Part shown: positions 176 through 48,573 of the stretch, one piece after another
Numbering within the stretch: position 1 is the first letter of the stretch
Layout: each line of letters opens with the position of its first letter
From: Phoronis australis
Taxonomy: Eukaryota; Animalia; Phoronida
Assembly: GCA_002633005.1 (NCBI GenBank)
Contig: NMRA01000506.1
Location: 20,069 to 84,068, forward strand
DNA length: 64,000 bases
Reading direction: 5' to 3'
Notes under the pieces: generated by a model
What the model was told of the DNA's origin: nothing
Databases searched by the model: none
What the model saw: only the letters and a program-made list of their open reading frames with translations
Position numbers and translations under genes: made by a program

Positions 176-395
176 CGATTCTGTGCCTCTGAGAAAAAAG
201 AGTGTAACAAGAAATTTGGATCTTAAACAAACAAGAACACGACCTTTACAGTAATCCTTGAAAGAAACGACATTGCTATCCTTAGCCTTACCGTCCAAAG
301 AACTACTCTTTTCCCTTTTAAAGCAGGCATGGAAATGGTTAAACAATTTTAACCGTCGATTTGACTTCAGATAATTTAGACTTCTAAAATGCAGA

Positions 396-4752: not shown

Positions 4753-7639
4753 GTAAGTCAGGTTTACATGTCCACAATTGCTCATATGTGTTCTAGAGTG
4801 TAACTTTGTTGCTGTTCTTTTCCTTCAATGTCATTATGATGTTCTGTGAATGTTGTTCTTGTATCTTATAGATGATGTTGTAATTTTTCAACTATTCGAA
4901 ATTTTTGCCATTCATAAAAATTGCAACCTATGAGTGCAATGTGAATTTAAAATGACAAAATATCCTTAAAGAAAGTTCTGTGGTAGGAATGGTTGTGCGT
5001 AAATGACCGTCCTGTGTCCAGTGCATTCTGTGCTAAAGCCTATCACTGAGTGCGTGATTCAGGTTATTTATTGTTCAAGTGAGATACGTCCTAAGTTCAC
5101 GGGCCTTTTTTACGGGTTTTTATTTTGACTTACGAATCATCTGTTGGTGCATTACAAATATTTTTCCAACAATTACACAATTTATTTGTGAAGGAGGCAA
5201 AGTTAAGGTACCCTCATGTCCCTCAGAGTGACACATTTTCATAGAAGAAACTTGCCCACCACCTGCAGCATTTGGAGAGTTGAAGTAGGCTCATAGCAGT
5301 GATAAACTTTCTCTACTTGTACCTGTCGCCATATTCGACTTGAAGGTCACACATTTTTCAGTCCTGTTGCAACCTTATATTGCCGGATTTTGTTGTTCAA
5401 ATTTAAAAGGGGACTGTGGTCAAACTAATGTTGCAGTTAATTGGTTCCAACATACAAATAAAGCTCACATTTGCCCGACTTGCGCGCCAAACAAAAGTCT
5501 ATTCGTATTCATGGTCAAAACACTTAATCCTGAAAGCGGTCACTGATTGGCTGATGTGTCAGTGATGTGAATGGCAGGGTATCCGCTCCTTTTCACATTC
5601 ATAGCTTTTGTCATATTTTGAAGAGTTTACATCGTAATTTATAATTGTATCAATCGTCCTTATTTTTCTTGTTTGCCATAGTGCTGTAAAAGCTTCGACA
5701 TGCCTTTTTGCATGGCACCTGGTTGTTCAAACTCTTCGAAAAAGGTGTTTTCTAATGGGATGGTCATTGCATACCATGAATGGGTTACCCAAGCCTTGGC
5801 GCAAAGCTGTATACTAAACATAGGCCTACAGGTTGTGCCGATATGGGTAAAAAATGGACAAATAAAATCTGACTGAACTAATGTCATTAAAACTAATCTC
5901 ATCCTTCAGTAAACCTAAGAACCAGGTTTCTACAGTAAATTAACTTCAGTATTTACCGGTGTTGGAAAAGTTAGCTATCGTTAATCGGCCGCTCCTAAAA
6001 TTTTTGCATTCTCTTGAGTCGGCTTTTTGCGATTACGTCAGTTTCCTGTCCCCCCGATTCTTTTATCAACTGTTCTTCGCTGCCGGCACCTAGGTTGTGT
6101 ACATGTCAAACAAATTATCGGAACTTGTTTCATTTCATTACAAGTTTGTAGTATTTTTATACCAGCAAACCGAATTTTAGAGCCAACCTAAATTTTTAGG
6201 AAATGGTGCCTGCGCCGTGTCACGAGCATGCTGTTTTTGAAACAGACGACACATTTCTTTGTTACAAAGGCTTGAAATATACTTTACAGTAAAATATCCC
6301 AATTTGTTCTCTGACCAGTACCGGCACACCGAACCTAACGCATAAACGGACAAAGTGGCCAAAAACAGTGTGACAAATAAACAAGCCAACAGACGGCGGG
6401 CCAACACTGGAGTATTCGAACTAACGCACGCGTGGTGATTTAGAAAAACCATGGACTTGTATGGTTGGTTTTACAAAATATGAATTATAGCGAGATTTGG
6501 GCCGCAGTCTAACCGGCTGTGCAACAGGACTGGCGTCTGTCTAGGTGTGCTCCCGTGCAGCCATCACTCGGTGAATTTGAAAGTTCAAAACCAGGAAGGT
6601 AAACAGTATTGGAAAGCAAAGACCAGTACGCAAAATTCTGCTCCTTGCCTCCGTCGCTTTGCCCCCTCCCGTAATTTCACGAACTCCACAATATTCCTCA
6701 TCGCCAATTTCACACCGTGGCATTTTATATTCCTGTGAGTTATTGTAGAGCACATTCGCTCCCCTCTATTCCTTTTATTGTACGCCGGTCCTATAAAATG
6801 TGCTGTACTCTTTTAGACAATTATCACGAAGGAACCAAATTCAGTAATCTGAAAAGTCACCCTTTCGGCACCAACAGCATGTAGGGGCGATTTTTCCCAA
6901 GCAATCTTTGTGTAACAAGTTTATTTTTAATTGAAATTAGCCACCTTTTCAACAGTATTTTTTTCAATGACAAATTCTGAATAGAACATGAAGCCTCTTT
7001 CAATTTTGCTGGCGAAAAGTGTCCTCCTTTTTCATGAGCTCGCGGTATGCCCATCAAGTGAAACCTTAACTCGGGACTATTAAAATCGAGAAAATATCTT
7101 TTTGTTGCTATAGACCGTGAAAAATCCACACACACTTTGAGTGGCATGCAACCCGAATAAGTCACATTTGTAAATCGCTAAGTCATTGACATGCTGAAAC
7201 GTATTTAAGCATGAAAAGAACATTGGAAAATAGCCGAATTGAAGTTCCACATATTGAATCACTGAGACATGAACTATAACGTATAAGTCATATTAAAAGT
7301 TGGCGATCCCATGTCAGTCCCGCCGACTTCTCTTCTAGAAAAGTGCGATGGCTACTACTTTAGGCTAAAAGTTCTGCAGTTGGTAAAACTGATTTGCATT
7401 TATGTTAGCAGCATTTTTTTTTTCATGCATCCCGTGTACTGTGTGTCGCATTCATTTGCCGATCTATTTGCTTCATGTTAACCTTGTAACGATAACTGAG
7501 CCGATGAATGAGCAGGCTGACCCACATATTTCACTGTGTAAAGAAAATATCCGATAATAATATATGTCCATCATGAAACTATTTATGTAACTTGGAACGT
7601 TCTAGAATACTGCGACTGATGCAATCTTTCAGATTTGTT

Positions 7640-7834: not shown

Positions 7835-10800
7835 ATGGAGGTTCCTGCAACAGCGAATAATTTTGGTGGTTTTCCGCCGTTTCTACGTGCCTCTTTGGTG
7901 CATAAAAATTATCCACTTGCGGTTCTCAGCGAGAGCTCCTCGCGCTTGTCTAGCCGGGTCTTTCAACCAGGTGACGGCGCCTCGACGTCGATCGAACAGG
8001 ACAAGTCTCAAACTGAAAGTGTTGCTTCCTTGATAAACTCACAGGTATGTTGCGTACATTTATCGGATCTTAGTGTACGTCCGATCACCCGGGCAATTCC
8101 CTTCCGGCCGGGCTGATTTAATTGCATAAGGCAAATAGTCCGGCTAAACAGTCCATGCTTCCAGGTTAGAACAAAAGGTGTTTGCAGAGACTTAGTTCAC
8201 GGCGGTCTGTGAATGCCGTGTTTTATAAGCTGTAACTGGGCTCCTGGCTAGTTGACTGCGGCGTGACGACGGTGAACCGAATGCCAGTTTTGACCTCCGG
8301 TGGGCAATTTGCACTTAGTTACAGCCTGGGGGATTTTCTAATATTAAGTCAGCTGGTCAACTGCGGTTTATCGAAATACAAACGTATCTGGCGATCAGCT
8401 GATCAGGATGATGAAATATCCCGGCGATCAGCTGATGAAATAAGTGGGTTAAATTAGTTCTATTGGAAACCGAAAGAGTGCGCCGTGTACTCGGGTCTCG
8501 TACTTCAAGCAGTAAACACTCCGGCCTTCCTTTGATTACTCGAGGTGGAGGCACGTCATTGGAAGTTTCTTTAGACATGAGACATGGCGAAGAAAATGGT
8601 TAGCATGAATTGACAATGACTTTGGGAGATCCCTGCTCAAATTTCAGTCCGTGTCACGCTCTGTTATTGAAATGCTTTTCTTCGGCCCAGGCAGTCTCAG
8701 TACCTTTGAGTGAGATTCACCGTATTTCACTTGAACTTTCATCCATTTTGATTATTCACTGTTGCTTGCTCATTTATGTTGTTTTACGCCTGACTTCCCA
8801 TCACAGTGGCCATCCCCCCAAAAAAAATCTCCCAGTGTACATTTTGGCAATCAGGGGCCGCGAATGCTTGACGGCCTGACAAAGTCTTGGCTATTACTCT
8901 NNNNNNNNNNNNNCCCCCCCCCCCCCCCCCCAACTCAAAATCCTGGATCCGCCCCTGCATCAAATGATTTCTGCCAGTTGCAAACAAAAGAACTAAAATT
9001 AGCAGTCAATCCTTGGCTCGGCCGCTCGATGTGTCTGTCACGTGACAACATGTTTGCATTTCCAGGAAACAGTTTTTCTGAAGTTGTTCGGCTGACTGCA
9101 TAAGTTAATTACATGGAAAATTTGACTACTATTTCAAGAACCGACTGCTAATATAATAATATAGAGTACAGGGAAACCCCACGAGGAAAATAAAATGTGG
9201 AGCCAATGAATAATCGCTTTGATGGACCGTGTATTAACTTTTGACGTGAGCAATAAAACAATTAACCAGTTAAACTACCTGGGGGGTCTGTTCGGGTGTG
9301 TCGTGTACGGATGCCCAATAAGAACTCTGCCTTCTACGGCAATTTCGCTGTGAACGATTGCCTTGTCTTATTAAATTCCATATGAAAATGGGCATTTCAA
9401 AATTTAAAAATTCTCCTAAAGAGTTGGATGATCCGGTACAGATTCTCCTGAAGAGTTGGATGAGTCGGTACAGATTCTACAAAAGATGGTCATGTGCTAT
9501 TTTGTAAATATGAGCATTGTGTTTTCCCCGGAAATGGGCACGTCCAGTGTCAATAATTAATAATCAGGCTGCTTTACGTCAATTTCCAATAAAAATGTTT
9601 CCATTAAATTTGTCGATGGCTTTTTTCATAGAACTCCATGAGGTTAACGGGGCTGGTCCTGATTTCGCAGCTGCACAGCCGTCACAAAGTACTGAAGTAA
9701 CCCCGGTGTGCTCTCCCACGACATATGCTCATACCCGTTAACAGTGATCAGGTTTTTCCGCAGTGTCCAGTTTTCTTGGAAAGGAAGATGCAAATCATAT
9801 CAGTTAGCCAATATTGACCGCCTGTTGTGTTTCCTGATTGGTTTGTTGCATCTTTCACCGCCTGTGGTGTTTCCTGATTGGTTTGTTGCATCTTTGACAC
9901 GCTTTCCTCGTGTGTCGCTGTAAATTGATGTAAAAGGCATTGAATTCATTAAGTTTTTGTAATTTTTGTTTATTTTTCTTTCAATTTTAGGATTTAGATA
10001 CAATTGAGGTGCTCACATAGATATTCCAACAACGGCTATAAAATTAATAAGTTGAATTTTAGGACGGAAAGGAAAATGAAATGAAAACTCCCAAACCCGT
10101 CATGATAACTCCCAAGCCCATTATGATAACAGCTTAACCAGTGAAAGAAAGCCTGGCCTCACGATTAGGCCAATAAGACTGCAGGAAATTCTTGGAAAAG
10201 CAACAAAATTTCCTGGCATCTACTCTCATCTGTATAACTTGGACTAGTGTGCGGTAAATCTAATAGACGTGTGTTTTAATCAGCTCTGGAATACAGCCCA
10301 TCTGTGTGCGATTCATTACTCAGTGTTCATTAAATCTTTGATTATTGATAATGGACATAGTGAATAATCAACCACAATGGCAGGTAGAAGTTAAAAAGCT
10401 TGCTTTTAATTTACAAAAACTTAATAATTCAAAACGTTTTCGTTCTTCATTATTTGTTGTTGATGGAAACTACTCTCCTTTTTAGGAAACTACAGATGAT
10501 TCGAAAATTGCTCGTCGTAGATACCTGAATAAATTGGCAGCACAGAGATGTAGAGATAAAAAGAAAATTCAAGCTGATCAACTTAAAACGGTAATTCTCC
10601 TATACTTTAACAACGTTTGCTTGTATAATTTAAATATATGTTATAAATTGCATAAATATCCCTCCACCTCCGGCTTTCTCAGCTTGTTTTGTTCCAAGTC
10701 ATTTGTTTTGTTTTGTTTTTCTTGATGTATCGTTTGTAGCCTCATTTTGTAATAACTTAGAATTATGCTTCATTGAAAATTACTAGACAAATATTGGAAT

Positions 10801-13152: not shown

Positions 13153-15119
13153 GTAGACTCAAATTATCCCTCTCGGACGTGTTTTCGTAAGTTTTCAATG
13201 ATTGGTCATGAAGCAAATCCTCCTAAGGTTAACAGTCTGTAACACAAATTTCTGAAGATAGTGATTTGGCTACATTATGTGACTTTAAATCCGTATATTC
13301 AAGCCCAGATAGGTGATTCTGTGTGTCGATTATGTATTGCTGTCAGAAAGTGACGGTGTTTTCACTACAAACCTGGCTTTTTACCACCGCCACTATAGTG
13401 TTACTGAACGAACCTTTTCATTTTTTTCGTCCCACGTCTTACCGAGACCGGTGCAATGTGTGTTATCGTAAAAAGGCCAACTAGTCATTAATAGCAAGGT
13501 CAAAGTTGAATTCAGGACCTCCTTAGGTTGAAATAAATAAAAAACATAAAATAAAAATGTCCTTGAAAACAACAATTTCCGGGCACCACTACCCAGTGCT
13601 GAGATCCAGCAGGTGCCGAGACAAAGGCGGCCAGACGTAGCCAACTCGGAAGTCAAAATCTGAGATAACCCTGCACCATAGCCACCAAGCTGAAAAATGT
13701 GTATCTTGGAACTAATATATTTGTGTTTATAATAGCCTTCGAGTTATCAAGCAACATCGCTAAGTTCAGCTGCTCGTGTGGCCGTCGGTACAGTTTGATC
13801 TGACGCTTTTCAACATCATTTTTCGGCTTAGGACATCATGCCAAAAACTGACGGGATATTATTCTGGAGCAGCATAACGGCTGTCGGTGCTGCACACGTC
13901 ATATCAACACCGTTTCCCCATTCTTAGCGGACAATTTCTTGAGCTATAGACTAAAGTAAGTTTTACTCGACTGCGTGTGGTTTGCCGGGTAAAATGGCGG
14001 CTTGGAAACGCAGACGAAGGTGTGCTAAGAATGCTGCGTTCTGATTGGTCAATTAAGCCGTCCGTCATAATCCAGNNNNNNNNNNNNNNNNNNNNNNNNN
14101 NNNNNNNNNNNNNNNNNNNNNNNNNNNNNNNNNNNNNNNNNNNNNNNNNNNNNNNNNNNNNNNNNNNNNNNNNNNNNNNNNNNNNNNNNNNNNNNNNNNN
14201 NNNNNNNGTAGACTCAAATTATCCCTCTCGGACGTGTTTTCGTAAGTTTTCAATGATTGGTCATGAAGCAAATCCTCCTAAGGTTAACAGTCTGTAACAC
14301 AAATTTCTGAAGATAGTGGTTTGGCTACATTATGTGACTTTAAATCCGTATATTCAAGCCCAGATAGGTGATTCTGTGTGTCGATTATGTATTGCTGTCA
14401 GAAAGTGACGGTGTTTTCACTACAAACCTGGCTTTTTACCACCGCCACTAGTGTTACTGAACGAACCTTTTCATTTTTTTCGTCCCACGTCTTACCGAGA
14501 CCGGTGCAATGTGTGTTATCGTAAAAAGGCCAACTAGCCATTAATAGCAAGGTCAAAGTTGAATTCAGGACCTCCTTAGGTTGAAATAAATAAAAAACAT
14601 AAAATAAAAATGTCCTTGAAAACAACAATTTCCGGGCACTACCTCAGTGCTGAGATCCAGCAGGTGCCGAGACAAAGGCGGCCAGACGTAGCCAACTCGG
14701 GAGTCAAAATCTGAGATAGCCCTGCACCATAGCCACCAAGATGAAAAGTGTGTATCTTGGAACTAATATATTTGTGTTTATAATAGCCTTCGAGTTATCA
14801 AGCAACATCGCTAAGTTCAGCTGCTCGTGTGGCCGTACAGTTTGATCTGACGCTTTTCAACATCATTTTTCGGCTTAGGACATGCCAAGAAATGACGGGA
14901 TATTATTCTGGAGCAGCATAACGGCTGTCGGTGCTGCACACGTCATATCAACACCGTTTCCCCATTCTTAGCGGACAATTTCTTGAGCTATAGACTAAAG
15001 TAAGTTTTACTCGACTGCGTGTTTTTTGTCGGGTAAAATGGCGGCTTGGAAACGCAGACGAAGGTGCGCTAAGAATGCTGCGTTCTGATTGGTCAATTAA
15101 GCCGTCCGTCATAATCCAG
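13153..15119. repeat. Near-identical ~920-bp tandem duplication across an N gap (13153-14075 vs 14208-15119)
   Basis: Copies differ by few SNPs and indels and abut the gap at 14076-14207; probably uncollapsed haplotypes. Confidence 0.85.
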
Positions 15120-18962: not shown

Positions 18963-19711
18963 CCGTGCACTGCCGCATGATACGATTAACGTAGTCCATG
19001 GAAGTAAAAAACAAATTCGAAAATACAGCGCTGTGCGTTGATGATTGGTTCTGACTCAGATCCCCCGCCCACGACGATCGTGGGGGTCGGTACACTTGGT
19101 GGAGGGGGGCATGAGTTTTTTTTTGAAGTTTAATTGGTTTGTGCTCTCCAATGCTTTTTACCGTCTCATCGCACTTCGGTCCTGGTGCCAATCATAACAG
19201 AAGGCAGAATGGTGAATGTTGGCCAATTCCCCTTTTGTCCACTGACGTCACAAGCATACTGGCGCCCCCAGTGGAGGCCCTGAGAACTCGTAAATAAACC
19301 GAGTTCATGAACCCGGTAGTATCCAGCCTAGCAAAGGCCGAGCCAAGCTGGCGAACAGACTTGTATTTATTGTGGGATGTTGAGTATCGTTTTTTTTAAA
19401 AACATAATGCATGGTATATAATAATGAATGGTATATAGTATCAATTAATTATGATTGAAAGATTCCNCCGTGCACTGCCGCATGATACGATTAACGTAGT
19501 CCATGAAAGTAAAAAACAAATTCCTGGCGAAAATACAGCGCTGTGCGTTGATGATTGGTTCTGACTCAGATCCCCCGCCCACGACGATCGTGGGGGTCGG
19601 TACACTTGGTGGAGGGGGGCATGAGTTTTTTTTTTGAAGTTTAATTGGTTTGTGCTCTCCAATGCTTTTTACCGTCTCATCGCACTTCGGTCCTGGTGCC
19701 AATCCTTACAG
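18963..19711. promoter_or_regulatory. Duplicated promoter-like module (18963-19200 and 19468-19711)
   Basis: Each copy has ATTGG (CCAAT) boxes, AP-1 TGACTCA (19052 and 19562) and a GC box CCCCGCCC. CRE TGACGTCA at 19243 lies between them. The second copy starts at a single N. Confidence 0.4.
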
Positions 19712-20284
19712 AAGTGGCAGTTGACGGAAACGAGAGGTACATATTCGCATTGTATTTATTGCCACTCCTAGCGGTGTTTTCACTTCCGTCAACACTCGGC
19801 AGGGAAATTTCAGTGCTGTAATTCGTGGCGGATTACTCAACAAATTAGTCATAGTTTGGCTTTCCCATTTGGTGGGAACTTAAATACTTCTCCATTTGCT
19901 GGAAATCAAGTACATTCGAACTACACGATGAATGATTCCGAAGACGTTCCCAGTCAGGGTGCGACAGGTTAGTTAAAACTGTCTTACTCTTCTTAGACTT
20001 AGTTTCATTTTCGTCAGCTCCCGGAATCCGCCAACATAACAACTGACTTAAGTTTAGCCCTAAGGGTTCCGGATTTTGAGAACCAGTTTAATACCCGCTA
20101 TTTAGTGGAGAAAACCTAGGACTATGATATTACTCCCAGAGAAAACTAGATCTCAAAATGCGGAACTCCTGTAATTGACTGTTTAAAAGTTTAACATGTT
20201 TAAGATTGGACCATTCCATGTTGTATTTGTCCTCCCTAGGCTTAGCCTCCAGCATTACGAGAAAAAAATTTAAGTATCTGTGAC

Positions 20285-21232: not shown

Positions 21233-23086
21233 AGACATAGTTTCACACCAAAACAACTGCTTTTCAACTCAAAGAATAGCATTGCAGGAGCCTGTTACTT
21301 GGGCTAGTTACTGTCCGCACAGCGTGATTAATTAGATAAGCCCAGCAGTAATGACCTTCTCCGACTTCAGTCGAGTAAATTCTGAAAACAGACTAGGCGG
21401 TTACATAAGCGTCTGTGATGTCGAGTCCGGAAGACAACTGTGTTGTAGGAATGAACTCGGCTGGTAAACCGCAGTCACACAAGGCAGAAACCAATATGGA
21501 TTACGAAAGCTTTAGCGACGATTCTTCCAACGATGAGGAAATTTTAGAAAATTTTTTGTTACGATAAAGCGTCGGACACAGACAATATGCACAACGACCA
21601 TCGTGAGCGTGCTCTTGACAACGTAAACGGGCCCTGCAGGTTCGAACCAGTGCCTGCAAGTGTCCCGGTCGCTTTGGATCAAGAGACAGCGGCGGATCCC
21701 GAAGACAATGTCCGCACAACTTCAGACATTTTATCACGTTAGGTAAATGGAAAACAAAAACAATCCCGCGAGTTTGAATGCGAATATGTTTATTTTCGAT
21801 TTATTTATAATACTTCAAGTTACATAAAAAGCAATTTCAAACATCGGGACTGTTAGACGGATAAACTGCGATATGCAAGACTGTCGTTTTGTCCTACGTT
21901 TCTTGATTTGCGTAGGTTGAAAGCAAGATGGGATAAGTTTTGTTGTAGGTTATGTATTGCAATTTGTATTTTATAACAAAAGCTTATTTTTGATTTTATA
22001 TCTATTTTAAGTAATTACTGAACAGAGAGGGGGTCGAAACCATTAAAAGTCACCCGCACTCGAATAAATTTAATCCCCATAATGTTTATTTAATTGCCAA
22101 AATACGACAGGTAAGTAGCATTCAAGCAACTACACACAATTATGTTGCAAAAATCGCAATTCAAAAGAAAAGCGGCTTCCGACAGTGTCCTTCGATGTTA
22201 TACACCATTCAGTAACGTTGTTCGCTTACTAGTGTGGCCAAGGCATAGTAGCTTCCGCAAAGCGACAGCATGTACAGTTTTGAATATTATCTAGAATTTC
22301 ACTTACCTTGGTTTCCAACCATACTGCGATTGCAGGCTGTCGACCTCGAAACAGTCTGCAGAAAAATGTTTACTCCATATCACCGAATACGGCGACGGTC
22401 CACTAAATTTTCTCATGGACCTCAAGAAATCTTCCCACCTGCGATGCAGTCTGGGGTTAGTGGGAAACCTATGTAATGACACCCCAGAGTGCCCAGACCC
22501 TGACACATTGTCACAGCCTCCAATCACACAACAGTCCGGCATTGTTCTTCAAATCTTTAATAGAGTTGAAGTATAAAAGTGTGTTTAATGTCGAAATAAG
22601 TATTCCAATTGGCACACAACAACAGTGATACGTCGTGCGTAGACAGACAGTGCGAAAGACGTGCGGCTGTACTCGAACACTTTATTGAGGACTCATTGCT
22701 AACTACTGTGAAATGTTTATGGCAACGCACAAGACCATGTGCATATGTGTCACATTTCAGACAATTAATTGGCAAAAGTTGCAAAATAAACCCATTCTAA
22801 CAAACGGAAAGCTTCCATTTGTGCCAGATAGTCCCAGTACAAACCTATGGACACACTCGGCTGCGATCGGGTCCGCTTCCGGACGTGACGTGATTCCGAA
22901 GATAGCCGAAGTTGAAAATTTTCTGTTCTTGAAATTTTGTGGGGAAGTGGGAGCATGTTTTACACGAATAATTGAAGAATATGGGGCATGAAATAAAAAG
23001 AAATGTGGTTTATAAGCAATCTTTATTAACAGTCAGCACATGTGTATACATATTAACTACAACTAAATAGCTGTGAATCGACCTCT
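21233..23086 (-). mobile_element. Decayed Kolobok-type DNA transposon (THAP on -, P2X7-ballast-like ORF start on +)
   Basis: TTAA at 21229-21232 and 23087-23090; TIR AGACATAGTTTCAC vs AGAGGTCGATTCAC (10/14). THAP relic at 22308-22542 (-) and an acidic, frameshifted ORF from 21496 (+) containing GPCRFEP, similar to the PYxFEP motif. Confidence 0.65.
22308..22542 (-). pseudogene. THAP zinc-finger exon, transposase N-terminus relic
   Basis: MPDCCVIGGCDN..SLHRFPTNPRLHRRWEDFLRSMR..SVIWSKHFSADCF follows the C2CH pattern but the third Cys is replaced by Trp; it ends at an AG|GTAAGT donor. Confidence 0.75.
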
Positions 23087-26650: not shown

Positions 26651-26885
26651 TATTATTGCATGCCAAAACAGTTGTACAGTCTTTACATATTACTGTATGC
26701 CAAAATTGCACCAATGCTGTTTAACGAACCTACTAGTACTTTACAAACTGGATGACAAATAAACTTTTCTAACCTTAGTATGATTAAGAAGTGTGGTTTT
26801 CTATAAGATGTAACGAGAACACGGGCATATGATGGCTCGTGAGAATCTTTATAATTTCACTTGAACTGTTGTTCATAATTTTCAG

Positions 26886-29800
26886 CAAGTCCAGCAGTTG
26901 GCAGTGGGGACACTGTGGATGCCAGACTGGGGTTTGGCAAGGGCTCAAGGTATGTTTTCAGATCCTCAGATGCTCCTCATAATTCTTAGCCCCAAGTGAT
27001 TGATGCAAAAACTCTTGGTTTTAAAGGAATTCCCGTGACTTATGAAAACCTGTCAAATATGCATAATTTATTCCTCATTTCCTGTACTGTAGGTTGCAAA
27101 CAACTTAAGAGATTGACTCATAAATACATAATTTCTGTAGCCACGAATTTTCCTTGTAGAATCACCTTAGCCTTCCCTTGTAGAATCACTTTAGCCTATC
27201 AAATAGATACTAGTGTGGCTGCAGAGGTGGGTCCCGCAATTCACAGTTGTTGAATCCATTAATGCAGTTGTCTCAAAAAGAGGGCTCCGCTCATAGCATA
27301 ACATCAACTTGCCAAATGTAACCTGGATTTACATATAGTACTAATATCTGCGGTTAAAAATCTTCAATTTGGGAGAGTGAAAAAGTAGTTAGTTTTCCGT
27401 AAGCTGGAGTTCGTGCCAAATTTTAGAAATAGGTAATATTGGTCATTCCAAATTCAAGAATTATGATCAATGACACGTTCATTCAAGTTTATGTTTCACG
27501 GGGCATTAAAGAAGAATTGCGTCATCTGCTATTTTTGGCAATTTTGTGAATTGTATCTATTTTCAGATTTAGTAGACCTATATAAAACAGTATCTGATAT
27601 TTGAGAAATGAAGTTAACACCATAACAGCCTATGTCTAAATCTTCAGAATCAAGAAAATTCAGTTTCTGTTTAAATTTCGGTTTTGGGAGGTTCTCTATA
27701 GATACATTAGGTTGTATCATAGTTTTTCCTGTCTACTGAAGTTTTGCTACCCGCACTTTCATGGAGGGCACACCTCAGGGGAAAACAAAGTATAAACGTT
27801 TTGCTTATATGATACAGTAGTCATGGTCTGTTGTGTGTTTACATAGCTGGGTGAGAGTGGTTTCCCATTGTGTGAATAATGCCATGTGTAAGTAAATGGA
27901 AAAACTTAGATGGATACATAGCAACCTGTGGTATTATCTAGTCTAACTCAAATGTTGACTAAGAAAAACACCAGGAATCATATGGATGTGAAAGTCTCTA
28001 TTAACACTACCTTAGCATTTTCGGTAATCCTGACTTTCTGTTCAATTGTGTAGTTTCGACAAATTGGTTACATCTCATTGTTTAATTCTGATAGTGCTTG
28101 CTTACAGGTGATTTATATGCTTGTTTCTCTGAATTTTCTTTTTCCTCATGTAACAGTTCTTACAGTGTTGCGGGCCGGGTCAGTAGTTCTACCTCACTGG
28201 AGGCAAGGAAAGTGGCGTCAGCTGTCCCAGAAGAGGAATACAACATGACGTATCCAAAGAGAGGCTACGCTGTCATTATGAACAACAGAAAGTTCTACCC
28301 TCACACCCGTATGGGCGAGAGAAACGGCACAGACCGTGATGCGGCCAATCTTTATCAAACTTTCCAGATGTTGGGGTTTGAAGTAGTTCGCAAAGACAAC
28401 TTGACTGTTCAAGAAATGTTGAATTTAGTCTACGAGTGTAAGTCAAGTTTACATGTCCACAATTGCTCATATGTGTTCTAGAGTGTAACTTTGTTGCTGT
28501 TCTTTTCCCTCAATGTCATTATGATATTCTGTGAATGTTGTTCTTGTGTCTTATAGATGGTGTTGTAATTTTTCAACTATTGGAAATTTTTGCCATTCAT
28601 TAAAATTGCAACCTATGAGTGCAATGTGAACTTAAAATGACAAAATATTCCTTAAAGAAAGTTCTTTGGTAAGAATGGTTGTGTGTAAATAACCATCCTA
28701 TGTCCAGTGCATTCTGTGCTAATGTATAGCACTGAGTGCATGATTCAGATTATTTATTGTTCAAGTGAGATACGTCCAAAGTTCAAGGGCCTTTTTTACG
28801 GGTTTTTATTTTGACTTTCGAATCATTTGTTGGTGCATTACAAATATTTTTCCGAGAATCACACAATTTGTCCCTCAGAGTGACACATTTTCATAGCAGA
28901 AACTTGNNNNNNNNNNNNNNNNNNNNNNNNNNNNNNNNNACATTTTCATAGCAGAAACTTGCCCCCCCCCCCCCACCTGCACCATTTGTAGAGTTGAAGT
29001 AGGCTCATAGCAGTGATAAGCTTTCTCTACTTGTACCTGTCGCCATATTTTACTTGATGGTCACACATTTTTCAGTCCTGTTGCAACCTTGTAATGCCGG
29101 ATTTTGTTGTTCAAATTTAAAAGAGGAGTTAGGGGACTGTAGTCAAAATAATGTTGCAGTTAATTGGTTCCAACATGCAAATAAAACTCACAGTTATCCG
29201 ACTTGTACGCCAAACAAAAGTAGATTCGTATTCATGGTCAAAACACTTAATACTGAAAGCGGTTGCTGATTGGCTGATGTGTCAGTGATGTGAATGGCAG
29301 GGTATCAGCTCCTTTTCACATTCATAGCTTATGTCATATTTTGAAGAGTTTACATCGTAATTTATCATTGTTTCAATCGTCCTTATTTTTTCCTGTTTGC
29401 CATAGTGCTGTAAAAGGAGCTAGAAACCTGATTCAAGGGTTTAGCAGTTTGACCTGGTGGGACTCAAACCAATGACCTCGAGTAAAGAAAGCGAGCACCT
29501 ATCACACTAGGCCACACTGTCCCCTCTTGTGATTAAGTGGCTATACACCATGTTCTGGCGTTAAAACGACTTCCTTATTATAGCAACAACTACAATAATA
29601 ATGTAATAATAATAATAATAATAATAATTAAACTTTATTTGTAAGGAATAGGATCCAATACAGTTTAAAACATGCTTTGGGCAAACCCTAATATAGAGCA
29701 TGGTTCTCATAGAGCAGTAAATTAAATTATATTGAATTAAGAAATTAAATTAAATTAAATTGATATTTACAAATTAAATTTATCAATCGAATTAAAATTT

Positions 29801-34222: not shown

Positions 34223-35288
34223 ATGATCCAGTTGTAATTATTTTAAAATATTTAGTTTTAAACTGGGCTGGTATCATACTGAAAGTGGCAAGTTGGATGT
34301 ATTAGTAATTTGTCGCATAGTGTGAATTAGTGTTTAGATGTCTTTTGCATGGATGTGAATGTGATCCACCTGTTATCTGAAGAGCCACACTTTTCACTGG
34401 AATCTTCACTTTCACACCAATTACCTTTTGTTGGCATGATGACTTACTATTTTATGCGGTTTCAGTCGAGTCACAGGACATGCACTTTGAACATTTGCAT
34501 TGAGGAGTACTTTAAATTTTATCTGTCGACAGAATGCATTTAGAAAACTGACAGCATAACTTGTGATCTGGACGTAGAGGTCTCCATGGCCTGTTATAAC
34601 AGGGTGTTGCACTCCCTTATGTACCTGTTGACTATGTGCTCGGGTTGAATGTAACCATCCTCTTTCAATTTATAGTCAGAAAATGTTTATCTGTACTCTT
34701 TTCTTTAGTTTGGTTTAGACAACCATTGTTTTGTACAATCTGTGCAGTGATACGATTCAATACCCAAGTTCATTTCAAAATCATGTGATCGAAACACACT
34801 TGTTCGTTTGATGTTCATTGACCCAGCTGTACAGGTGATTACTCAATATGCAATAAAGGCATTGATACCAGTTGTACAAGGAATGCAAGTATAGTGTACT
34901 CAGCTCAGTATAGAACGATAAAACCAGGAAACATTCAATGTAGCATTGTTAACTGTGCCATGAAGAATGACTGAAGGCTCTCACTTCACTGTTGCAAAAT
35001 AAAGGTTTAGCCACGTAGTAGAAATAAACATTATCTCAGTAACTAGTATTCTCAAAGACTGCATTTTTGCTGAAGTGTGATTTATTTATTTTTCAAAAAT
35101 AGTTGTGTGGAAAACAAAACCAAACTTCCGACTTGTCTCCAGTCATTTTTCATGAAACAGGTCTCTAGAGTTTGTCAGATTGGGTCTCCTCAGTTGCTTG
35201 TATCTCTGTGTTGTCATCAATAATAAAAAGTCATGATAGTGAGACATGTTCTTATTTGTTAATTACATCATTTTTTGGCCATAGTACG

Positions 35289-35631
35289 ATTAGAAAACAG
35301 ACAATCGGCGCACAAATAAAAAAGTTCATGTTAACTCAACGTTTCGTCTATTCATAAAACATCAGGATAAGTACAGTAGGAAAACAAGTGGCGATTACCA
35401 TTCAAGTCACATCCATGTAGTGAAATGAGAGTGAGTTACACAGGGAAAGTGAGTAGGTCATCACCATAGTTGCAGGGTCACTGAGCTTTGCACGTTATTC
35501 CACATGGATGTGACTTGAATGATGATCGACACTTGTCCTACTGTACATATCCCGATGATGTCTTGTGAATAGACAAAACGTTGAGTTAACATGAACTTTT
35601 TTATTTGTGCGGCGATTGTCCGTTTTCTAAT
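35289..35631. repeat. Inverted repeat (~130-bp arms) carrying degenerate hammerhead-ribozyme-like motifs; possible Penelope-like element end
   Basis: Arms at 35289-35418 and 35502-35631; their consensus is CCTGATGATGTCTTGTGAATAGACGAAACGTTG. Confidence 0.6.
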
Positions 35632-36507
35632 TGTTCTTATTTGGTATGTTGTAACCAATGGATGATGTTGTAACCACTGGATGTTGCTCGCCTTGCTTCA
35701 CAGTCCTGGTTTTACTGGAAGACAATTGAACACTGCTTAAAAGTGTCTCTTATTTATCTCAGCTCAGTCTTAATTGTGTGTGAATGCACAGGTGGAGTGA
35801 ACAAGAACCTGGATATAATGCAAAAGCCAATTCCTGAGGTGTGCCAATATTCAGGAAATAATTACAAGAACATGTTGAAGAAACAATCCAGTTGTCACAA
35901 CCATAAATACTGGAGCCAATCAGTTGCATCCCAGTAGGTATGGCAACATGTCTCACATACAGTGATGCGGAAAATATAGCACGAGTCACTGACCAGCAGC
36001 AACAGGACTTTCATCGAGTCAAAATGTCAAGTTAGAAGTCCGACTGAGTATTTACGGACTCAACCATTGAACTGTTACCTTGAACAAGACTGACTAGTGT
36101 TGGTGTCCAGCAACAGCTTAATCAATATCAGAAAAGAACTTGAGCACACTCGCACAGCTAAAATTATTTTAAAAAATTCTACTTATTTTGCAAAGGACTA
36201 CTTTGAAGTAACCTTTTGCCTCACCTAGTTCACACAGTCAGTTTTGCACTTCTGAAAATATCTATGCAAAGCCGAGTCATTAGTTCTAGTGATGCACACC
36301 TCTTTAACTGTATCAAAAAGGTTTGAATATTGCGTGTTTATCACTTGCTTACTCAAGACATTTCCCACACCCATCCACTACATAGGCTGTATATTCGGTT
36401 TATTTCACAGACCCTGATTATCAGGAAATATAATTTCTCAATTCACTTTGTGCAAATTAAGTACAGAATTATCATATAGGGTGTTTTATCACATTTATTT
36501 CAGAGAG

Positions 36508-39500: not shown

Positions 39501-42500
39501 CAATGCAAAAACATTGAATGGTGCACTGTGTCATCCATTTGTGTATGGTAATGCGCAAGGCACACCATACCTTACACACTGCTCAGGACATCTTCTGAGT
39601 ACTTTACTGAACTTTTGAAATGCCACATCACCATGTCGAGGTAAAGCTTTTTCATACTTCTCAGAAGACGCACTTCGACTGAAACGAAACATACTTTAAA
39701 GGAGCACTTCCCAATTACTGCCTTAAAAATACTTAAAGCTGCATTTTGCCCCGTTTAGCTGGCTGAAAAAAGGAAATCGAATTTGGCCTTTTACTCTCAT
39801 AATATCAGTCTCATAATAATCCTTACCATGATACTCAGCAGGATTCAAATTCCATTAACAACCCAGTCACAGGCAATGCGTACCTGCACCACAGAAATAG
39901 CATACTATTATGGTGAGCAATATTACAAGACTGACTTTATGAGAGCAATAGGCTGAATTCATAATTTTCCTAAACCAACTCTAGTCTCAGGCTATGAGTA
40001 CCTGCAATATGGAAACAGAATCCCATAGGTAAGCAATATGATAAGACAAAGCTAAACAAGGCAATATGCAGCTTTACCAACTGATACTCCAAACCTTTCA
40101 AATGGCTGCTACCCTTAAAGTTGGTGGAACCAACTTTGGCAAACAGGATGGCTACATAAAATGCAAAGTAAACCAAACTTTTTGTATGTTATACAATAAT
40201 ATGCATCTCCACGTTAAACCAGGCACAAAAATTTTTGCATTATCTAACAACTGAGAGAAAAAATTAATCATCGTTCCCTGGAAACATCTGATCAGTAGTT
40301 AGCATTAGTAAACTTTGTGTGTCAATACAAACTCACCAACAGTGTTAGTTTTTATGTTGCTCTCCTGATCAACTTGTTGCTGCTGCTATCTATTTACAGT
40401 TCAACCCATAACAGGGTAACCAACTATACTAGTATTACCACAAACTATCCCACAGTGTTTAGGAGAGTCAACGGTCCCATTTAGGTGTTTGGGGTAGTCA
40501 ATATGGTCTTTCAAAATCAAATTGTAGAACACTATTTCTCACATGACCTGGAATGTGTTACGATACGACTGGTTAATTACACCAAGTACGTAATTCTTTT
40601 GACATTACACGCCTTCAAAGATTCAGACATCAAGTGGACATTTTTCAGATAGTTTGAACATACGCCCCAATATTATTGTAACAATAACCGTGACTTAAAC
40701 AATATTCCCACCCAAAAGTACACCCATGGGAACAATCCCAAGTTCCCACCAAGTCGTCACAGACATTAATTCACCCAAAATACACTACAAAATTTGTGGT
40801 GACTTCCAAGCGCATATTCACTTTCATTTGACGTTTTTGAAAGGTCATTTTCCACCCGTGTGCTTACTTTCGGAAACTTTCTGGTAATAGTCTTCAATTG
40901 TACATGGCTATGACTGTTGCCTTACCCTGACACTTCCAAGTCAAACATTGCTTCAAAGTCAACGTTTTCTTTTTTGACATATGCACTAAGTAATCTCTTC
41001 TCATGTAACATATCATCCATGGTGTCGTCAGGTTCTTCAAACACTGACAAATAGTAACCCACAAATGAAACATCCAACAAGTCATGTCCACTGCAAACAT
41101 CTAACTGAGCGGAAGTGTTGAGGTGTTGCATAATAGCCAGGTCACCTACAGATATATCTTCAGGTGTGCAGTCAAGAGGACCATTTGGACTACAACTACT
41201 GGATAATGTTAACTGCTGCAGCTCCCCAGCGACTTCTTTTGGTATACTATCATGTACCTCGCACTGCTGTTTACCACTCACAATCTGAGCACAGGTTTCC
41301 ACCACTGGCTCATGTGTGGTTGTCTCATTGTATGTAGTGTCACCATGGTAACAGTCCCCAACACGTGGCGGAGATTCCCCAGTGCCCCAATCATCCTCAT
41401 CATTACACCAACTGTCACTCTCAAACAAAAGTTCAGAAATGACTTCATGCGTGTTTGAAGAGTAGGATGAGTCAAGCTTTTGAACACGATAGACATACCA
41501 ACTGCAAATGAAAAGGGTAGCCGTTGATCAAAAGCTAAATATATTATTAAACAGTTTCATCAGGATTTCGTGATGAGATTACAGAACAAATTTTTTCTAA
41601 TAATCCAGGAAACTTACTTTAAACAGTAGAGTTTTCGGAAGCCGATGTTGACTGCTTCCTTCCTCAGTGTGATCCTGTGAAGTACTAGGGGTCAAGATGT
41701 GTCATAAGCATGGGTAAAGTTTAAATGCCCAATAATTATTAAACGGAAAATGCAAAAATAATTGATAGTGACAATGACACTAGAAAAACACGAAAGAATC
41801 TCCTGAACAGATAACCCTGATCTCGTTCTTGTTTTTCTGGTGTCACTGTCACTATCAATTATTTTTGCATTTTGCGTTTAGTCATGATTGGGCATTTAAA
41901 CTTCTCAAGCGTTTATGACACCATCTTGACCCCCACAACTTCAAAGGGTCATAACGAAGAAGGAAGCAGTCAACATCGGCTTTCAAAAACTTCTGCCAAT
42001 TAAGGTAAATTTCCTAGATTATTAGAGTTTCTACTGCAGTAATCTATTATTTATTGGCAAGTCACAGATGTAGCTTATTTCCACTAGGTGGAAAGCCATA
42101 TAGCTTTTAATACAGTAGTTTTCAAAATAAACTGAACAGACTTCAATGGAACTATGAAACACTTCTTGCCAGAATTATTTGGCAGAGAGTTGAACTTTTG
42201 TTCCAAAAAATAATGTATTTGTAGAACTAAAAGAGAGTTTAATATGGCACCATGGCACTTAGCTATAGATTTGTTAATTTGTGACTGGACCTGCATGTAA
42301 AGTTGTCGCAATATTGACAAAGCACGGGGGAGCAACATCTATCTGGATTTTGTTGATATTTAGCCAGAATTGAAACAGAGTCTTATCACAACTTAGTTCT
42401 TCGAAATTTTGTCAAAATTGCCAAGTTTATTTTGAAAACTATTACACATAAAATGACTTATCAACAATTTTCACAATACATTTCTAAAGACAGAAGCCCT

Positions 42501-45500
42501 CTGTTTACACAAGATTGTATTGCAAGTCCTACCTCTCAGCAGTATTTCGACATTTTGGGTGAACACAGGCGAAGACGTACAAAATCCTATGATATGGAGA
42601 GTTGTGCAGAGGACAGTAGATCTGGGTAACCAATACAAGAGTCTGTTGACACGTCCTGCAATTGGCAGCAACTGGTGCACAACTCTGAAAGTTCACCTGT
42701 AAAAAACACGATTAGCAAATTATGTACTAACATACTCAAAGGGCAATCGAAGTAGTTAAATGACATCATATCTCTTGGCGAGCAGAGTGTAAAAATGGCC
42801 AGTATCATGTAGATTCTAACAGATATTTGTAAGTTCTGGTAGCACTTAAAATGTATGACTGTTGATCACATGTTACTATGACGTGTACGAACTTTAACAT
42901 GTATTTAGTTTTGTTGCATGTTTTAATTACTTAGAAGTCGTTTGCTTCAGTGCTGATTACGTTGACAGTATAAATCTTTCATCATTTATTTATTTATTTA
43001 TTTATTTATTTAAACTTCTTTAAAAGACTGGGTGACCACTTCAGTGAATACACTGATTTTCAAGTGGGCCCAGTTGGAAATAAGTACATGAAGTAAAATA
43101 CAGAGACATATGTACAGTTAGATTGAAAAGATTAATAAGTAAAATAAATTAGTGAAAAAATTAGTTAATATGTACAATTAGATGAATAAAAAAGATAAAG
43201 GAGGGTAAATAATAAGCTGAGGACTACAATCCCAAACCACGTACAATGTCCCAGTAATTCTGTTTGAAGACATGGACATTGGGCGTGTTCGTAACGGCAG
43301 TCCCCAGCCCATTCACTTGGTACATATGACGTTACTGCCAGTTGCCGATTCGGGCAACCAAACCAAGGAATACAGTCCCAACAGGTGGTATGACGTCACA
43401 TCACTGACGTGGAAGGAATTAAATACATCGACGGCCTGCTCAGGTGTCCCTCTACAGGGATATACCCAGGTTTCAAAACTCCTCTCGCCAGCTGGGTGAG
43501 TGATCCAGAAAATCTACTCACCCAGCTTAAAGGTAGCTCGCCTGGATGTTGCGCGTCGGACACCACATACTTGCTGCCAAGGGTAATAAAAATGATTCTT
43601 ACGTGCATTGTTGTCACCATCTCAGTATTAGGGCTAACATCATTTTTGCACAATGCAGAATTCCAAGAAACTTTCAACATTGATGACTGAGGCCAGCAAC
43701 GCACGACGTAGCCTTGGCGCAGTCTTATTTTAATGTACAGCTTGTGCCGATGTGGGTAAAAAACTGACGAGATAAAATCTGACACAAAAGTAGTGTCGTT
43801 AAAAACTGAACTCTTGCTTGAGAAGACTGAAAATTATTTACCGTGTTTGAAAAAACTGGCGTTCTACCGTTTATTCTGCTGCTAAAATTGCAGCATGATC
43901 TTTTGCGTCAGCTTTCAGCGCCATGAAATATTGCATCACCCACCAGCCCGGCCAGTTTCTTTTTTCGCCAATTCTTCAATCAACTGTTGTTCTTTAACTT
44001 TTACGAGGAGGAGTACACGTCACAACTAACTACCACAATTTGTTTCATTAACTTCATTAACAGTTTTTAATGCCAGCAAACTGAATTTCAGAACAAATTT
44101 TGCTGTTGCGAAGCTGTCGTCATCTCCCATGAGAAGTCGCAAAACTTGAGGAAGTGGCACCCAAGACAATAGCACGTGCACCAGTCGTGCACAAGTCATG
44201 CCTCATGTGTGGACTAGAACAGTTTTCAAGGGGTGTCATGCCAGTGGCCACACCGAGAAATGCTGTGCTGTACTGTGCTGCTAAATCATATGGCTGGACC
44301 AAAATACGGAAAAAATCTTTACATCTGGAAATCTTATGGCTACATTAAATAGATTCAATGCCATCAATCTAGTTAAAAATTTTATATTACTTTGGTAGTA
44401 AATATAATAAGGACAATCATTGTAATTACGTTCTCAACCATTATTATATATTAAAAAATCTTGGCTAAAATTACACTGCAAAATAAGGTGTCAATTCCAA
44501 GAAATATGTTTTTTTTTCACTCGCTGTGAGCACAATGGACCTGTCTCCGCCTTCCCCCTTTTTCTTCTTTTCGGACTAGTCCATAAATTCCTTGGTGCAA
44601 GACCTCCTGTGACCTTTTGTCTACACAAATCGCAAAACTGACTCAGTAGGAGCACACTGTGTCGATGTTTTTACTACTGCAGCATCGAGACGCGAGCCAA
44701 AATTTACCTTAAATTCAAGATAAAAACTGCACAGGGAAGAGAAAATTTATTAGTTTTCACCTTGGAAACAATTGAGTTTTTATTTTGCGCTCTGAAAATG
44801 TGCTCACCACCCAGGCAACCGGCAAGTGAACTTTTACTCGCTCAACGCCATTTTTAATCGCATTGGTATATATCTCTGCTCTATGCACAAAAGGTATTAA
44901 TAGTAACGTGACTTCGATGTTTTATAATAAGTGTGAGAATTCGCCAAAAATCTTCCGTCGTATCAGTGAAGCCCCTGTTGTAGATGTGCTTCCTGTGAAT
45001 CACATATGAGCCTCTGTTAGCTACTCGCTAACGGGCAATTGCCTGTTAGCTGAATAGTTAGCACGCTTGCCGGTTTTACAGGGGTCGCTGGTTTGATTCC
45101 CGGGTCAGGTAATCTCAGCTATTACTACAAATGGCGTAATCGGCAAACGGATATGATATACTGATGAAGCACTGCCAACAAGTACCAGCGGACCTCGAGA
45201 CGGCGCGCATGGAAGGTTCCAGGAGTCAAGGACCTCTATGAGAGACTACCTTGTGTTCACCTGAGTTCTGGTGGTAAAGGTACCAATGACCTGTATGCGA
45301 GACATCCTGGTGTTCACCTTCCTGGTGGCGTTCCTGTTCCGTAGGAAAGGGGGGAATGTTGTAGATGTGCTTCCGGTGAATCATATATGAGCCTCTCAAC
45401 GGGCAATTGCCTATTGGCTGAGCCTGAATGGTTAGCACGCTTGCCGGTTTTAAACTTTTATGGGGTCGCTGGTTCGATCCCCGGTCAGGATTAGGTCACA

Positions 45501-45795
45501 TGGGCAGCGCAACACTGAAAAAATGGGGGGCTATAGCCCCTCCCTCCCCCCTCACCGCCTCTACTGGGTAAGCTAGAGACGGTGACCAATGAATGTCTAG
45601 ACTAGACATACCGACACATGAATGATAGACACCCAGGTTAAAACATTCACAACGCTGAAACGTGTTAGACCTAATTGTTCGGGATTATAATGTAGTAAGC
45701 AAATCTACCTGTTTTCCCCCAATTTTACTGATTTCAGGAGAAAGTTCCAAAAGGGCCTTCGTTTCCTCGTCAGGAATGCCAATTAATGTTGTCAT
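36508..45795 (-). CDS. PDCD2L: Programmed cell death protein 2-like, ~402 aa, 6 exons
   Basis: Exons 45795-45709 (MTTLIGIPD..SKIGGKQ), 42696-42533 (CRTC..QIYCPLHNSPYHRILYVFAC), 41501-40926 (WCNDEDDWG), 39678-39571 (EKYEK..GDVAFQKF..CPEQCVR), 38628-38483 (YHWDGSPL..CQSCGSERVYELQLMPALV) and 36635-36508 (EFGTVLVYSCRQSCW..*). All GT-AG with consistent phases; no MYND finger. Confidence 0.95.
38711..38782. repeat. 23-bp tandem repeat x3
   Basis: GCAAGGGTAAAGCAGACGTATCA repeated three times. Confidence 0.85.
39021..39352. repeat. ~49-bp minisatellite x7 in a PDCD2L intron
   Basis: Units of GACAAGCCAACTTGAAGACCTGGTCTCCAGCAATAACATGACACGCCGT. Confidence 0.9.
41576..42045. mobile_element. Foldback/MITE-like palindrome with ~200-bp arms in PDCD2L intron 2
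   Basis: 41597-41790 is an imperfect reverse complement of 41830-42025 (e.g. AGCCGATGTTGACTGCTTCCTTC / GAAGGAAGCAGTCAACATCGGCT), with a ~40-bp spacer. Confidence 0.8.
42984..43200 (-). mobile_element. Probable LINE/SINE 3' end
   Basis: (TTTA)n tail followed by CACTGATTTTCAAGTGGGCCCAG and an AT-rich UTR-like stretch. Confidence 0.35.
44976..45489 (+). mobile_element. Miniature non-autonomous LTR retrotransposon (TRIM) with tRNA-like sequence in its LTRs
   Basis: 5' LTR 44976-45129 (TGTTGT...ACTACA); PBS TGGCGTAATCGGCA at 45132; PPT AGGAAAGGGGGGAA at 45343-45356; 3' LTR from 45357, truncated near 45489. A and B boxes are present in both LTRs. Confidence 0.8.
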
Positions 45796-46494
45796 TTTGT
45801 GGTTTCAGAGGAGAACTTGTATCAGAAAGCAGAAAGTCGAAAACGTGCCGAGAAGTACGTCATCGTTTCGTGCGTGGTTTTACAATATATAGGTCATTGC
45901 ACACTTCCTGGTTTGGCGTGAGACTGTAAATAAAGTCAATTAAAATGATTTTGATTGTTTAAGTTTCAGCATTTTTAATTTGAAGGAATTGGAATGGCTA
46001 GTGGTTCAAAAAAGAAAGCGTGAGTATATTAAGTGATCTTTTAGTTTCGGCACTACTGTATTAGTTGGTATCTTACGCCATAAGTACACGCCGACTCAAT
46101 GAGATTCTGTTCAAAACATTTCAACAATTCAGTTGCGCAATTGATCTTCCAGCAACCTAACCTGGGTAGAGTTCCATAGTGAAAATCACCTTGTTCCAAG
46201 TTTCAAACTTGGTACCTTTTGCTTCAGTCCGAGGTGTCCTATACATTTACCCCCTCGCCTCCTTACATCCGCCTCTCTCAACCATGTATGGCACCATACA
46301 TGACAACTAATACTAACGGTCGTCAGCCATCATGGGACCATAAAATTAAGGAGACTGTGTGCTTCCTCTGTATCCATACCGTTGTTGGGTGCCAGTATAG
46401 TGAATAATCAAATTGTTTCAAGGTTCAAAGCCAGGCATCCTAAGTAGACCACCAAAGGCAATTAAAGAGCAACTGTCCTAAAGGGAGTGACTAA

Positions 46495-46683: not shown

Positions 46684-48573
46684 AAGAGAATTCCACCCGA
46701 TTTAATTTGCCTTTTTTACCGTCTTGATCGGTCTATATCCTCATCAACACGTATACGATCGATCTTACCTCGCTGAGAGGTGTCGCGTTAACCTGTGAGG
46801 AAGGTACTGAGAAACGACGTAGCAACATCAGTGGTTGTTCTGCAGAGTGCCGCTATGGTGTTGTGTATCGTTCCTGCTTGTGCGAACAATTTAGCTGCGA
46901 GGAAAGTGGGTATATCATTTTTTCGATTTCCTCGAGAGCCCATAATGCTTCGGAAGTGGCTCGTGATAGTGAAGAATGAAACGTACGCCATTAATACCAA
47001 ATATGAGGCCGTGAAACTTTGCCATGTCTGCCAGTGGCCTGCAATCGTCGGATCAGTTGTTGATCAGTTTTTGATCATGGAGAATTGTAATTATAGCCAT
47101 GAAAACATAAACTATTACAATTAATTCAAGGCTTGAGAACATAACGTTTTATATAATGTGTTTGATGACTGACTCGTTCGTCAGGCTTCTGTTTGGTCCT
47201 CCAGGTGTAGGATGATTTGCCACTTCTTTTTCTCAGCCCTAAAAAACGTCGTAAGCACACTTCTGTTTAGATGTGGTGCAAAATCAGGATGGTTGTGAGA
47301 CACATCTGCGGTTCTTCAAGCAGGCGTTTCACTTGCGGAATTTCATGGCAGCAAACGCATCATTTGTTCGCATTATCATGCAGTTAGCTTACTGACACCA
47401 TGACAAGTCATTCAAAAGGTTTTCGGAACTATCCAAGTGTTGCGTTGTCTGTACACGTTCGCGGAGCCTCTCTATTATTTCTTGATCAGTGTATTCCAGT
47501 TCGAACTGATAGCCTGTGAAACCTAATGATTGACCTATGAAGTCTTCGTCCGATGACCACTCGTCTAAATCTGGGATTGCGAGTTGCCAGGTTGACGTTT
47601 ATTATTGTTAGTTCTGTTTCAAAATGAATTATTCTCACCCTAACCATTGCTTATATCAAACTGAAACAAAGTCTGTATCATTAGATACAATTTGTAATGC
47701 CTTGGAGTGTTCATGAGTGCAAATGTTTTGAGAAGCCAGTAATGAATAAATCACTGCATTACCGGCTTTGTTGATGCAATAAACTAATTGACCTGGCTCC
47801 GAGGCTGTGTGAGCGCATGCTAATTCAGTGTTTGCTGACAGAAAGCTGTCGAATCATTGTTACTGTACAAGTTTTGCCCTGATGGTTCTGTAGATGGGTA
47901 ACCTGACTTTGTGACCCTCAACGAGCTAGTAAGTAGATTTGAAGTTTCGCGGCTAATTCACCAAAATAACCACGTGCACATTTTTTCTTTGGCTCACTAA
48001 TATAGTGTTTTCGTGACTGGAAGTTTAGTTTTTCCAACTTTGGATGGTTATGTTCGTGATGTCTTCAGTCCGGCCGCGATGGGTCTGATTGGGTTCCGAG
48101 CCATTGGCCGGGATAGCAAGCGTTTTGTGTGTTTAGAACTGAAAAAATCGCAAGTCTAAAATTACAACACATAGCTATGTTTTCCTGTCTGTATTTCACA
48201 GACGAATCATTTGAGTTTATCACTGAAACTCCCGCGACCACAGACCTTGGTAACTTGGCCTACCGAACTTTGTAGGCTACGGTACATTCAAATACCTAAA
48301 AATCTGTAACAGCGAAATAACACGTTTGTTCAATAACATCAAATTTTGATGATTTATTGGTGTAAAACGAGGAATTCAAGTGGTAAGCTGACACCAGTAA
48401 GCCTATTGTGAATTTGTGAACAGACTGCATTCGAACCTCTGGCGTCATTGATTAATTTCAACACCTCCGTCTGCCATCAGATGTCAAGTAAAAGAGCTGT
48501 ACTTGCTGTTATCGAGTGGAACTACTCGATCTAAACTGATGCAAACTAGGTTGTTTTTGGGTGGCATTCTCCC
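46684..48573 (+). mobile_element. Decayed Kolobok(P)-type DNA transposon with convergent THAP (+) and P2X7-ballast-like (-) relics
   Basis: TTAA at 46680-46683 and 48574-48577; TIR AAGAGAATTCCACCC / GGGAGAATGCCACCC. THAP from 46855 (CIVPAC..SFFRFP..KW..KLCH). On -, 47580-47220 reads GYQFE..SWCQ*ANC.M..CVCCHEI..CLT.HPDF..LNRSVL with one stop and frameshifts. Confidence 0.8.

Follow-up and report, generated by a model that had tools for sequence, protein, structure and literature searches.

In a 64,000-nucleotide stretch of Phoronis australis DNA (hereafter the window), positions 44976..45489 hold what is very probably a decayed copy of a multi-copy, non-coding mini LTR retrotransposon with tRNA-type boxes in its LTRs (Helenus type), belonging to a family that Pol III likely transcribed and that likely depended, for its copying in trans, on a Gypsy element primed by tRNA-Ser. 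Helenus (TRIMp3) is a class introduced in 2024 by Kojima, in which boxes of tRNA type lie inside the LTR (consensus TRGCY..YGG for the A box and GGTTC for the B box), and its animal members are tied to Gypsy via primer sites and 4-bp TSDs (PMC10886601). That paper, in the part available, gives LTR to interior ratios up to about 8, and it leans to several separate origins; Pol III use is unproven for the published Helenus elements too (PMC10886601). Five features of this class are present in the element described here: two LTRs in an element of less than about 1 kb in total that encodes no protein, A and B boxes, a primer site, a purine tract and dispersed multi-copy occurrence. The element, its neighbouring repeat and the surrounding gene are laid out as follows.

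44976..45129, plus strand: 5' LTR, 154 bp, TGTTG..TACA, defined by the sequence and by contig exits to unlike flanks
45027..45050, plus strand: self-complementary stretch of 24 nt, a 10-bp stem with one G-T pair, its 3' arm being the start of the A box
45047..45058, plus strand: A-box-like motif, from a box scan at no more than 1 mismatch
45074..45077, plus strand: four-T run between the boxes, a possible weak Pol III stop (predicted function); 3' LTR equivalent at 45448
45090..45100, plus strand: B-box-like motif, 43 bases past the A box
45130..45356, plus strand: non-coding interior, 227 bp
45132..45145, plus strand: primer-binding site, tRNA-Ser type, 2 bases past the 5' LTR (two A between)
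45227-45274 and 45284-45328, plus strand: imperfect interior repeat pair, from self-comparison
45343..45356, plus strand: polypurine tract, abutting the 3' LTR
45357..45489, plus strand: 3' LTR, cut short, 133 bp, B box at 45471, without CA end
45499..45566, no strand assigned: piece of another short dispersed repeat occupying the expected LTR end; loose contig ends lie before 45498/45499 and behind 45540
42533-42696, minus strand: next PDCD2-like exon, joined in phase 0 to the first exon
42697-45708, minus strand: inferred PDCD2-like intron 1, between the exons, predicted from sequence
45709..45795, minus strand: inferred first coding exon of the PDCD2-like gene (ATG, GT donor, AG acceptor, phase 0 join)

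The direct repeats start at 44976 and 45357 (blastn E 5e-26). An initial annotation of this DNA had described them as about 154 bp long with TG..CA ends, which holds for the 5' LTR but not for the right repeat: with 133 bp, it stops at 45489 and lacks the final 20 bases and the CA end, so that the annotation overstated how intact the copy is. With fewer than 5 mismatches allowed, this missing tail has no other occurrence in the window. Over 120 aligned columns the two LTRs differ by 7 substitutions (K2P 0.061), and several indels separate them as well, indicating that the copy is not fresh; a 13-base gap in the 3' LTR deletes part of the left arm of the self-complementary stretch and retains its 10-bp palindrome. 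A 308-nt contig from one of the DNA runs (X1, which may be the window's own sample) crosses the 3' LTR junction without differences, and the cut end is thus probably not an assembly error. No TSD is readable, since the 3' LTR end is lost and adjoins another repeat, from which it is separated by 9 bases (45490-45498). AGCCCC of the left flank was considered as TSD and rejected, as it recurs at 45535 inside the neighbouring C-rich repeat. The repeat at 45499..45566 is likely a palindromic MITE; it consists of half of a short palindromic repeat fused to the apparent end of a different one, and has many unlike flanks in the DNA runs. The left flank (44430-44975) is itself repeated, with a summed depth of ~290-5,200 compared to ~36 (X1), and the element therefore sits in or beside another repeat.

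Other parts of the anatomy agree with what had been annotated. The interior is indeed 227 bp long and non-coding, no ATG-started frame exceeding 52 codons across the whole element, and it contains the reported internal repeat (36 nt at 83%). At 45132-45145, 13 of 14 bases match the complement of the tRNA-Ser 3' end, a motif that is present in a human tRNA-Ser template oligo (PMC3299991, in the part available). Of the final 15 interior bases, adjoining the 3' LTR, 14 are purines, a run equalled in 11/5000 shuffles. The A box at 45047 and the B boxes at 45090 and 45471 were all recovered, and when one mismatch per box is allowed, these LTRs account for two of the three A/B pairs of the 64 kb, compared to 0-2 pairs in a whole shuffled window (20 shuffles). 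No further copy of the element was found within the window.

The copies elsewhere were followed in contigs of four DNA runs (X1-X4), all from one sample that is possibly the window's source, mapped at 80% likeness. The LTR bin reaches a summed contig depth of 84,313 in X1, compared to a mean of 36.5 over seven single-copy bins, an excess of ~2,300-fold (~2,950-fold in X4), and the interior bins stand at 283-443-fold single-copy depth in X1 and 273-467-fold in X4. Summed contig depth cannot be equated with copy number, and along the LTR it changes by a factor of about eight; we therefore take from it only a rough size of the family, in the range of hundreds to a few thousand copies. That LTRs exceed interiors in depth is likely due to solo LTRs or to sister families. 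Moreover, the depth in X1 falls from ~130,000 at 45045 to ~17,000 at 45107, and part of the LTR signal may hence stem from another repeat sharing the 5' half.

Contigs leave the element for unlike flanks exactly at both LTR ends. Among the 24 of 1225 loose-end rows listed, 18 contigs in X3 diverge before 44976 with an agreement of 0.41, and 19 contigs in X2 (0.37) and 21 in X4 (0.38) diverge behind 45129, which places the LTR ends at many loci and argues against a SINE-like common tail. The whole layout recurs at a second locus, represented by one contig at single-copy depth in all four runs, in which an LTR is followed by the primer site, 102 other letters, the interior end, the purine tract and the beginning of a second LTR; another contig runs from 172 unrelated bases into the LTR. 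Neither of the outcomes that the initial annotation had named as counting against it, an arrangement unique in the genome or copies with SINE tails and no LTR architecture, was thus observed. At the one primer-site base that differs from tRNA-Ser, the tRNA-matching letter accounts for 11,838 of the 11,958 units of summed depth in X1 (35 contigs; 99%), and at 45056 of the A box most other copies are nearer the consensus (79,380 of 80,522 summed depth, X1). The window copy has thus decayed from a better-matching family. Contig joints from 45135 back to 45006 and from 45186 back to 45046 may point to copies elsewhere in the genome that are arranged in tandem or carry internal deletions. An LTR motif search of metagenome and viral contigs gave 0 matches. 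The primer-site motif occurs at 118 metagenome loci (median GC 62%), none of which shows further likeness to the element, beyond the motif itself, at E<0.2, and these loci were therefore taken as chance matches.

The unit inside the LTR had been described as tRNA-shaped, and this description could not be upheld. ARAGORN recognised 0 tRNA genes in it, a search of Rfam gave 0 matches at E<=10, and folding against shuffles yielded z-scores of +0.10 and +0.27 without a cloverleaf. A 7-bp acceptor stem and a 5-bp T stem are likewise absent; the GCCTG..CAGGT pairing that had been read as acceptor-like lies one base off the tRNA register, and most other copies differ at 45045 and 45107. As a consequence, a tRNA origin of the unit rests on two short boxes and on a by-eye likeness to published LTRs. 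This outcome would suit a standard TRIM that Pol II transcribes and in whose LTR the remains of a dead SINE or of a tRNA persist, the boxes being passengers, and the four-T run inside the unit and the mutated boxes of the window copy point the same way. Against such a TRIM speak the closer fit of most copies to the A-box consensus, the tRNA-like box spacing of 43, and the fact that, by eye and in the available part of the published set, the layout of a hairpin followed by an A box recurs in Helenus elements of distant animals. We consider it improbable that the boxes are passengers. A working tRNA, or a primer supplied by the element itself, would account for the presence of both A and B boxes, yet no cloverleaf forms, and the best duplex between LTR and primer site has -15.4 kcal/mol compared to -32.1 for a perfect match and is equalled by 53 of 1000 random 154-mers, whereas a host-type tRNA-Ser end fully matches the site in most copies; of the alternatives weighed here, this is the least credible.

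A tRNA-derived SINE or other short repeat that was tandemly duplicated by chance, with no LTR mechanism involved, would fit the 3' copy without CA end, the lack of a TSD and the far higher depth over the A-box half of the LTR than at the LTR end. However, the primer site lies 2 bases past the CA and the purine tract abuts the TG, the contigs exit exactly at 44976 and 45129 with a flank agreement of 0.37-0.49 and hence without a common tail, and the full layout exists at another locus. A SINE2 layout is absent as well, the boxes lying ~70 bases inside a TG..CA repeat with no common tail behind 45129 in the contigs. A chance tandem duplication is therefore largely refuted and, in our estimate, highly improbable. 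The reading of a multi-copy, non-autonomous LTR element with tRNA-type boxes, of Helenus type and probably of a new family, which the initial annotation had put forward in essence, is the one supported by these data.

With Helenus the element shares a short non-coding LTR build, A and B boxes in the LTR, a primer site for a tRNA 3' end, a purine tract, LTRs that outnumber interiors, and a size that, at 535 bp if whole, falls within the published 311-1263 bp. Its tRNA likeness is weaker than that of the Helenus families known to tRNAscan-SE. By-eye comparison with parts 1 and 5-11 of the Helenus supplement (PMC10886601) disclosed no identical family; the primer-site letters and four other motifs of 9-14 bases gave no match in a search of the whole supplement, in which line breaks can hide matches, and in the same file 3 of 6 motifs of a second set did match. 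A literature search outside subscription journals and Repbase found no follow-up describing new animal Helenus families. The family is thus probably an undescribed one of a published class, as judged by eye and by short motifs. Judged from the supplement entries, the Ser-primed mussel families Helenus-2_MyGa, Helenus-2_MoPh and Helenus-2_LimFor are nearest in build, with a tRNA-Ser primer, an interior of 226-268 bp, an LTR of 141-156 bp and a palindrome closing on the A box. In Helenus-2_MyGa (144 + 226, Ser primer), the first nine LTR bases are the same as in the window element. The mussel families differ in their primer-site letters, and their LTR body and interior are alike only in short motifs (by eye). 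Cassandra TRIMs (PMC7215508) and Ajax (PMC10886601) also carry a Pol III promoter in the LTR, but one of 5S rRNA-derived boxes A and C instead of tRNA-type A and B boxes; Cassandra is moreover a plant element, and its LTRs are reported, in the part of that paper available, to be self-complementary. The animal biv-TRIM (PMC6934838) has inverted repeats and palindromes as well, but according to the available part of its description its hairpins are interior ones and a canonical primer site is missing, whereas the window element has a hairpin in the LTR and a canonical site.

Relative to a PDCD2-like gene the element is antisense and falls within the predicted intron 1, about 220 bases from the first exon, a placement that the initial annotation had also given and that follows from the ATG exon and its in-phase (phase 0) join to the next exon. 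Later minus-strand exons match PDCD2_C, and the exon near 41 kb has an amphioxus PDCD2-like match at 30% (4 matches in all). Searches with exons of the window either gave no match or reached distant animals only, the caspase with 36-69% identity and named matches in molluscs, a priapulid, a hemichordate and chordates, which marks the host as an animal without a close relative among these proteins. Nothing here indicates an effect of the element on this gene. At 45995-46030 of the plus strand, some 200 bases away from where the PDCD2-like gene starts and pointing in the opposite direction, lies a short ATG exon ending in GTGAGT, which possibly forms a head-to-head pair with the PDCD2-like gene.

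Several other features of the window were recorded. At 29150-29520 (minus strand) an A/B pair with a spacing of 44 stands in a G-rich head followed by a body of ~300 bases; from its sequence it looks like a tRNA-derived SINE and is unrelated to the LTR. A 3-kb duplication (2776-5692 and 26651-29416, 87-94% identity) includes a caspase exon, and the caspase-3/7-like gene extends to about 34213. THAP-domain frames, possibly DNA transposon remains, are located at 22306-22548 (minus strand) and 46792-47121 (plus strand). Long imperfect inverted repeats (~80% identity) of fold-back or MITE-like type occur at 35283-35637 and at 41596-42026, the latter in a PDCD2-like intron. Tandem duplicates that are 96-97% identical (13153-15119 and 18963-19714) flank N gaps and likely represent both haplotypes in the assembly, and a bZIP exon lies at 10486-10722 (plus strand).

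For the Helenus-type family, a life cycle can be proposed in which Pol III, directed by the internal A and B boxes, would start near 45040 and its RNA would then run through the interior into the 3' LTR. This RNA would be packaged in the particle of a helper, likely Gypsy, and reverse-transcribed from a host tRNA-Ser bound at the primer site; synthesis of the second strand would start from the purine tract, and the integrase of the helper would insert the copy, probably duplicating 4 bp of target as animal Helenus does. Since its insertion, the window copy has accumulated changes in both boxes and in the primer site and has lost its 3' LTR end beside the other repeat, and given these changes it is probably no longer mobile. 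A difficulty for the Pol III model is the T4 run, which lies 34 bases past the predicted start and could stop the polymerase early within the 5' LTR.

The self-complementary stretch at 45027-45050 folds into a hairpin with a 10-bp stem (one G-T) around a perfect 10-base palindrome (45034-45043). Its fold has a z-score of -4.35 for a region picked after seeing it; comparable stems number 2 in the 64-kb window and 0-5 in ten shuffles, and 7 of 6266 51-base windows fold equally well. That a stem should end exactly on the A box by chance is unlikely, with the caveat that this coincidence was chosen after sight. In the part of the published set available, a by-eye tally puts a like stretch in about 49 of the 76 Helenus LTRs from animals other than insects; it opens with GCTA or GTTA, closes on the TAGC or TGGC of the A box and varies in its centre letters. 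By group, the same by-eye tally amounts to 2/2 in coelacanth, 13/14 in ostariophysan fish, 31/51 in bivalves, 3/3 in nemerteans, 0/3 in brachiopods, 0/1 in ctenophores and 0/2 in sturgeon and paddlefish, the last two having a palindrome at that position but with a different sequence. These entries are not independent, representing about four lineages, and were compared by eye and short motif without alignment. None was seen in the wasp and fungal Helenus entries examined by eye. Five of six hairpin motif searches gave their first match in the animal part of the supplement file, and the sixth motif also matches fungal interiors. Compared to the versions in the available entries, the hairpin of the window family is two bases longer and differs in its letters. 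The words "hairpin" and "palindrom" are absent from the text of the Helenus paper (PMC10886601), and our literature search found no description of an A-box hairpin.

A more speculative suggestion, which we hold to be less likely than not, is that much of animal Helenus, the window family included, descends from a single ancient lineage whose mark is a hairpin of 22-24 nt at the A box. Its self-complementarity would have been kept in coelacanth, carp-like fishes, bivalves, ribbon worms and the present host while its centre letters varied, and the hairpin would be a signal to read through the first LTR and end in the second. The same distribution could result from horizontal transfer or from a tRNA head that folded back repeatedly. 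The 5' end of the RNA would already lie within the hairpin, so that a complete one could form only from the 3' LTR; somewhat more doubtful still is the idea that it could mark the RNA 3' end, either as a stop, in strand transfer or in the pairing of two RNAs. Hairpin-aided stopping of Pol III in yeast works, according to the available part of a preprint (bioRxiv 10.1101/2021.08.27.457903), at a distance of 0 or 7 bases and not at 18. From the end of the core hairpin to T4 there are 23 bases, and only an extended fold that uses the window copy's own letters reaches 7, so a hairpin-aided stop at T4 stays speculation.

As a find, the element is one more Helenus family, seen in a damaged copy. The hairpin, if conserved, would provide a handle on how Pol III passes the promoter and stop of the first LTR yet ends in the second, and on whether animal Helenus arose once or many times; a single hairpin-marked lineage, if true, would speak against an independent origin in every animal group.
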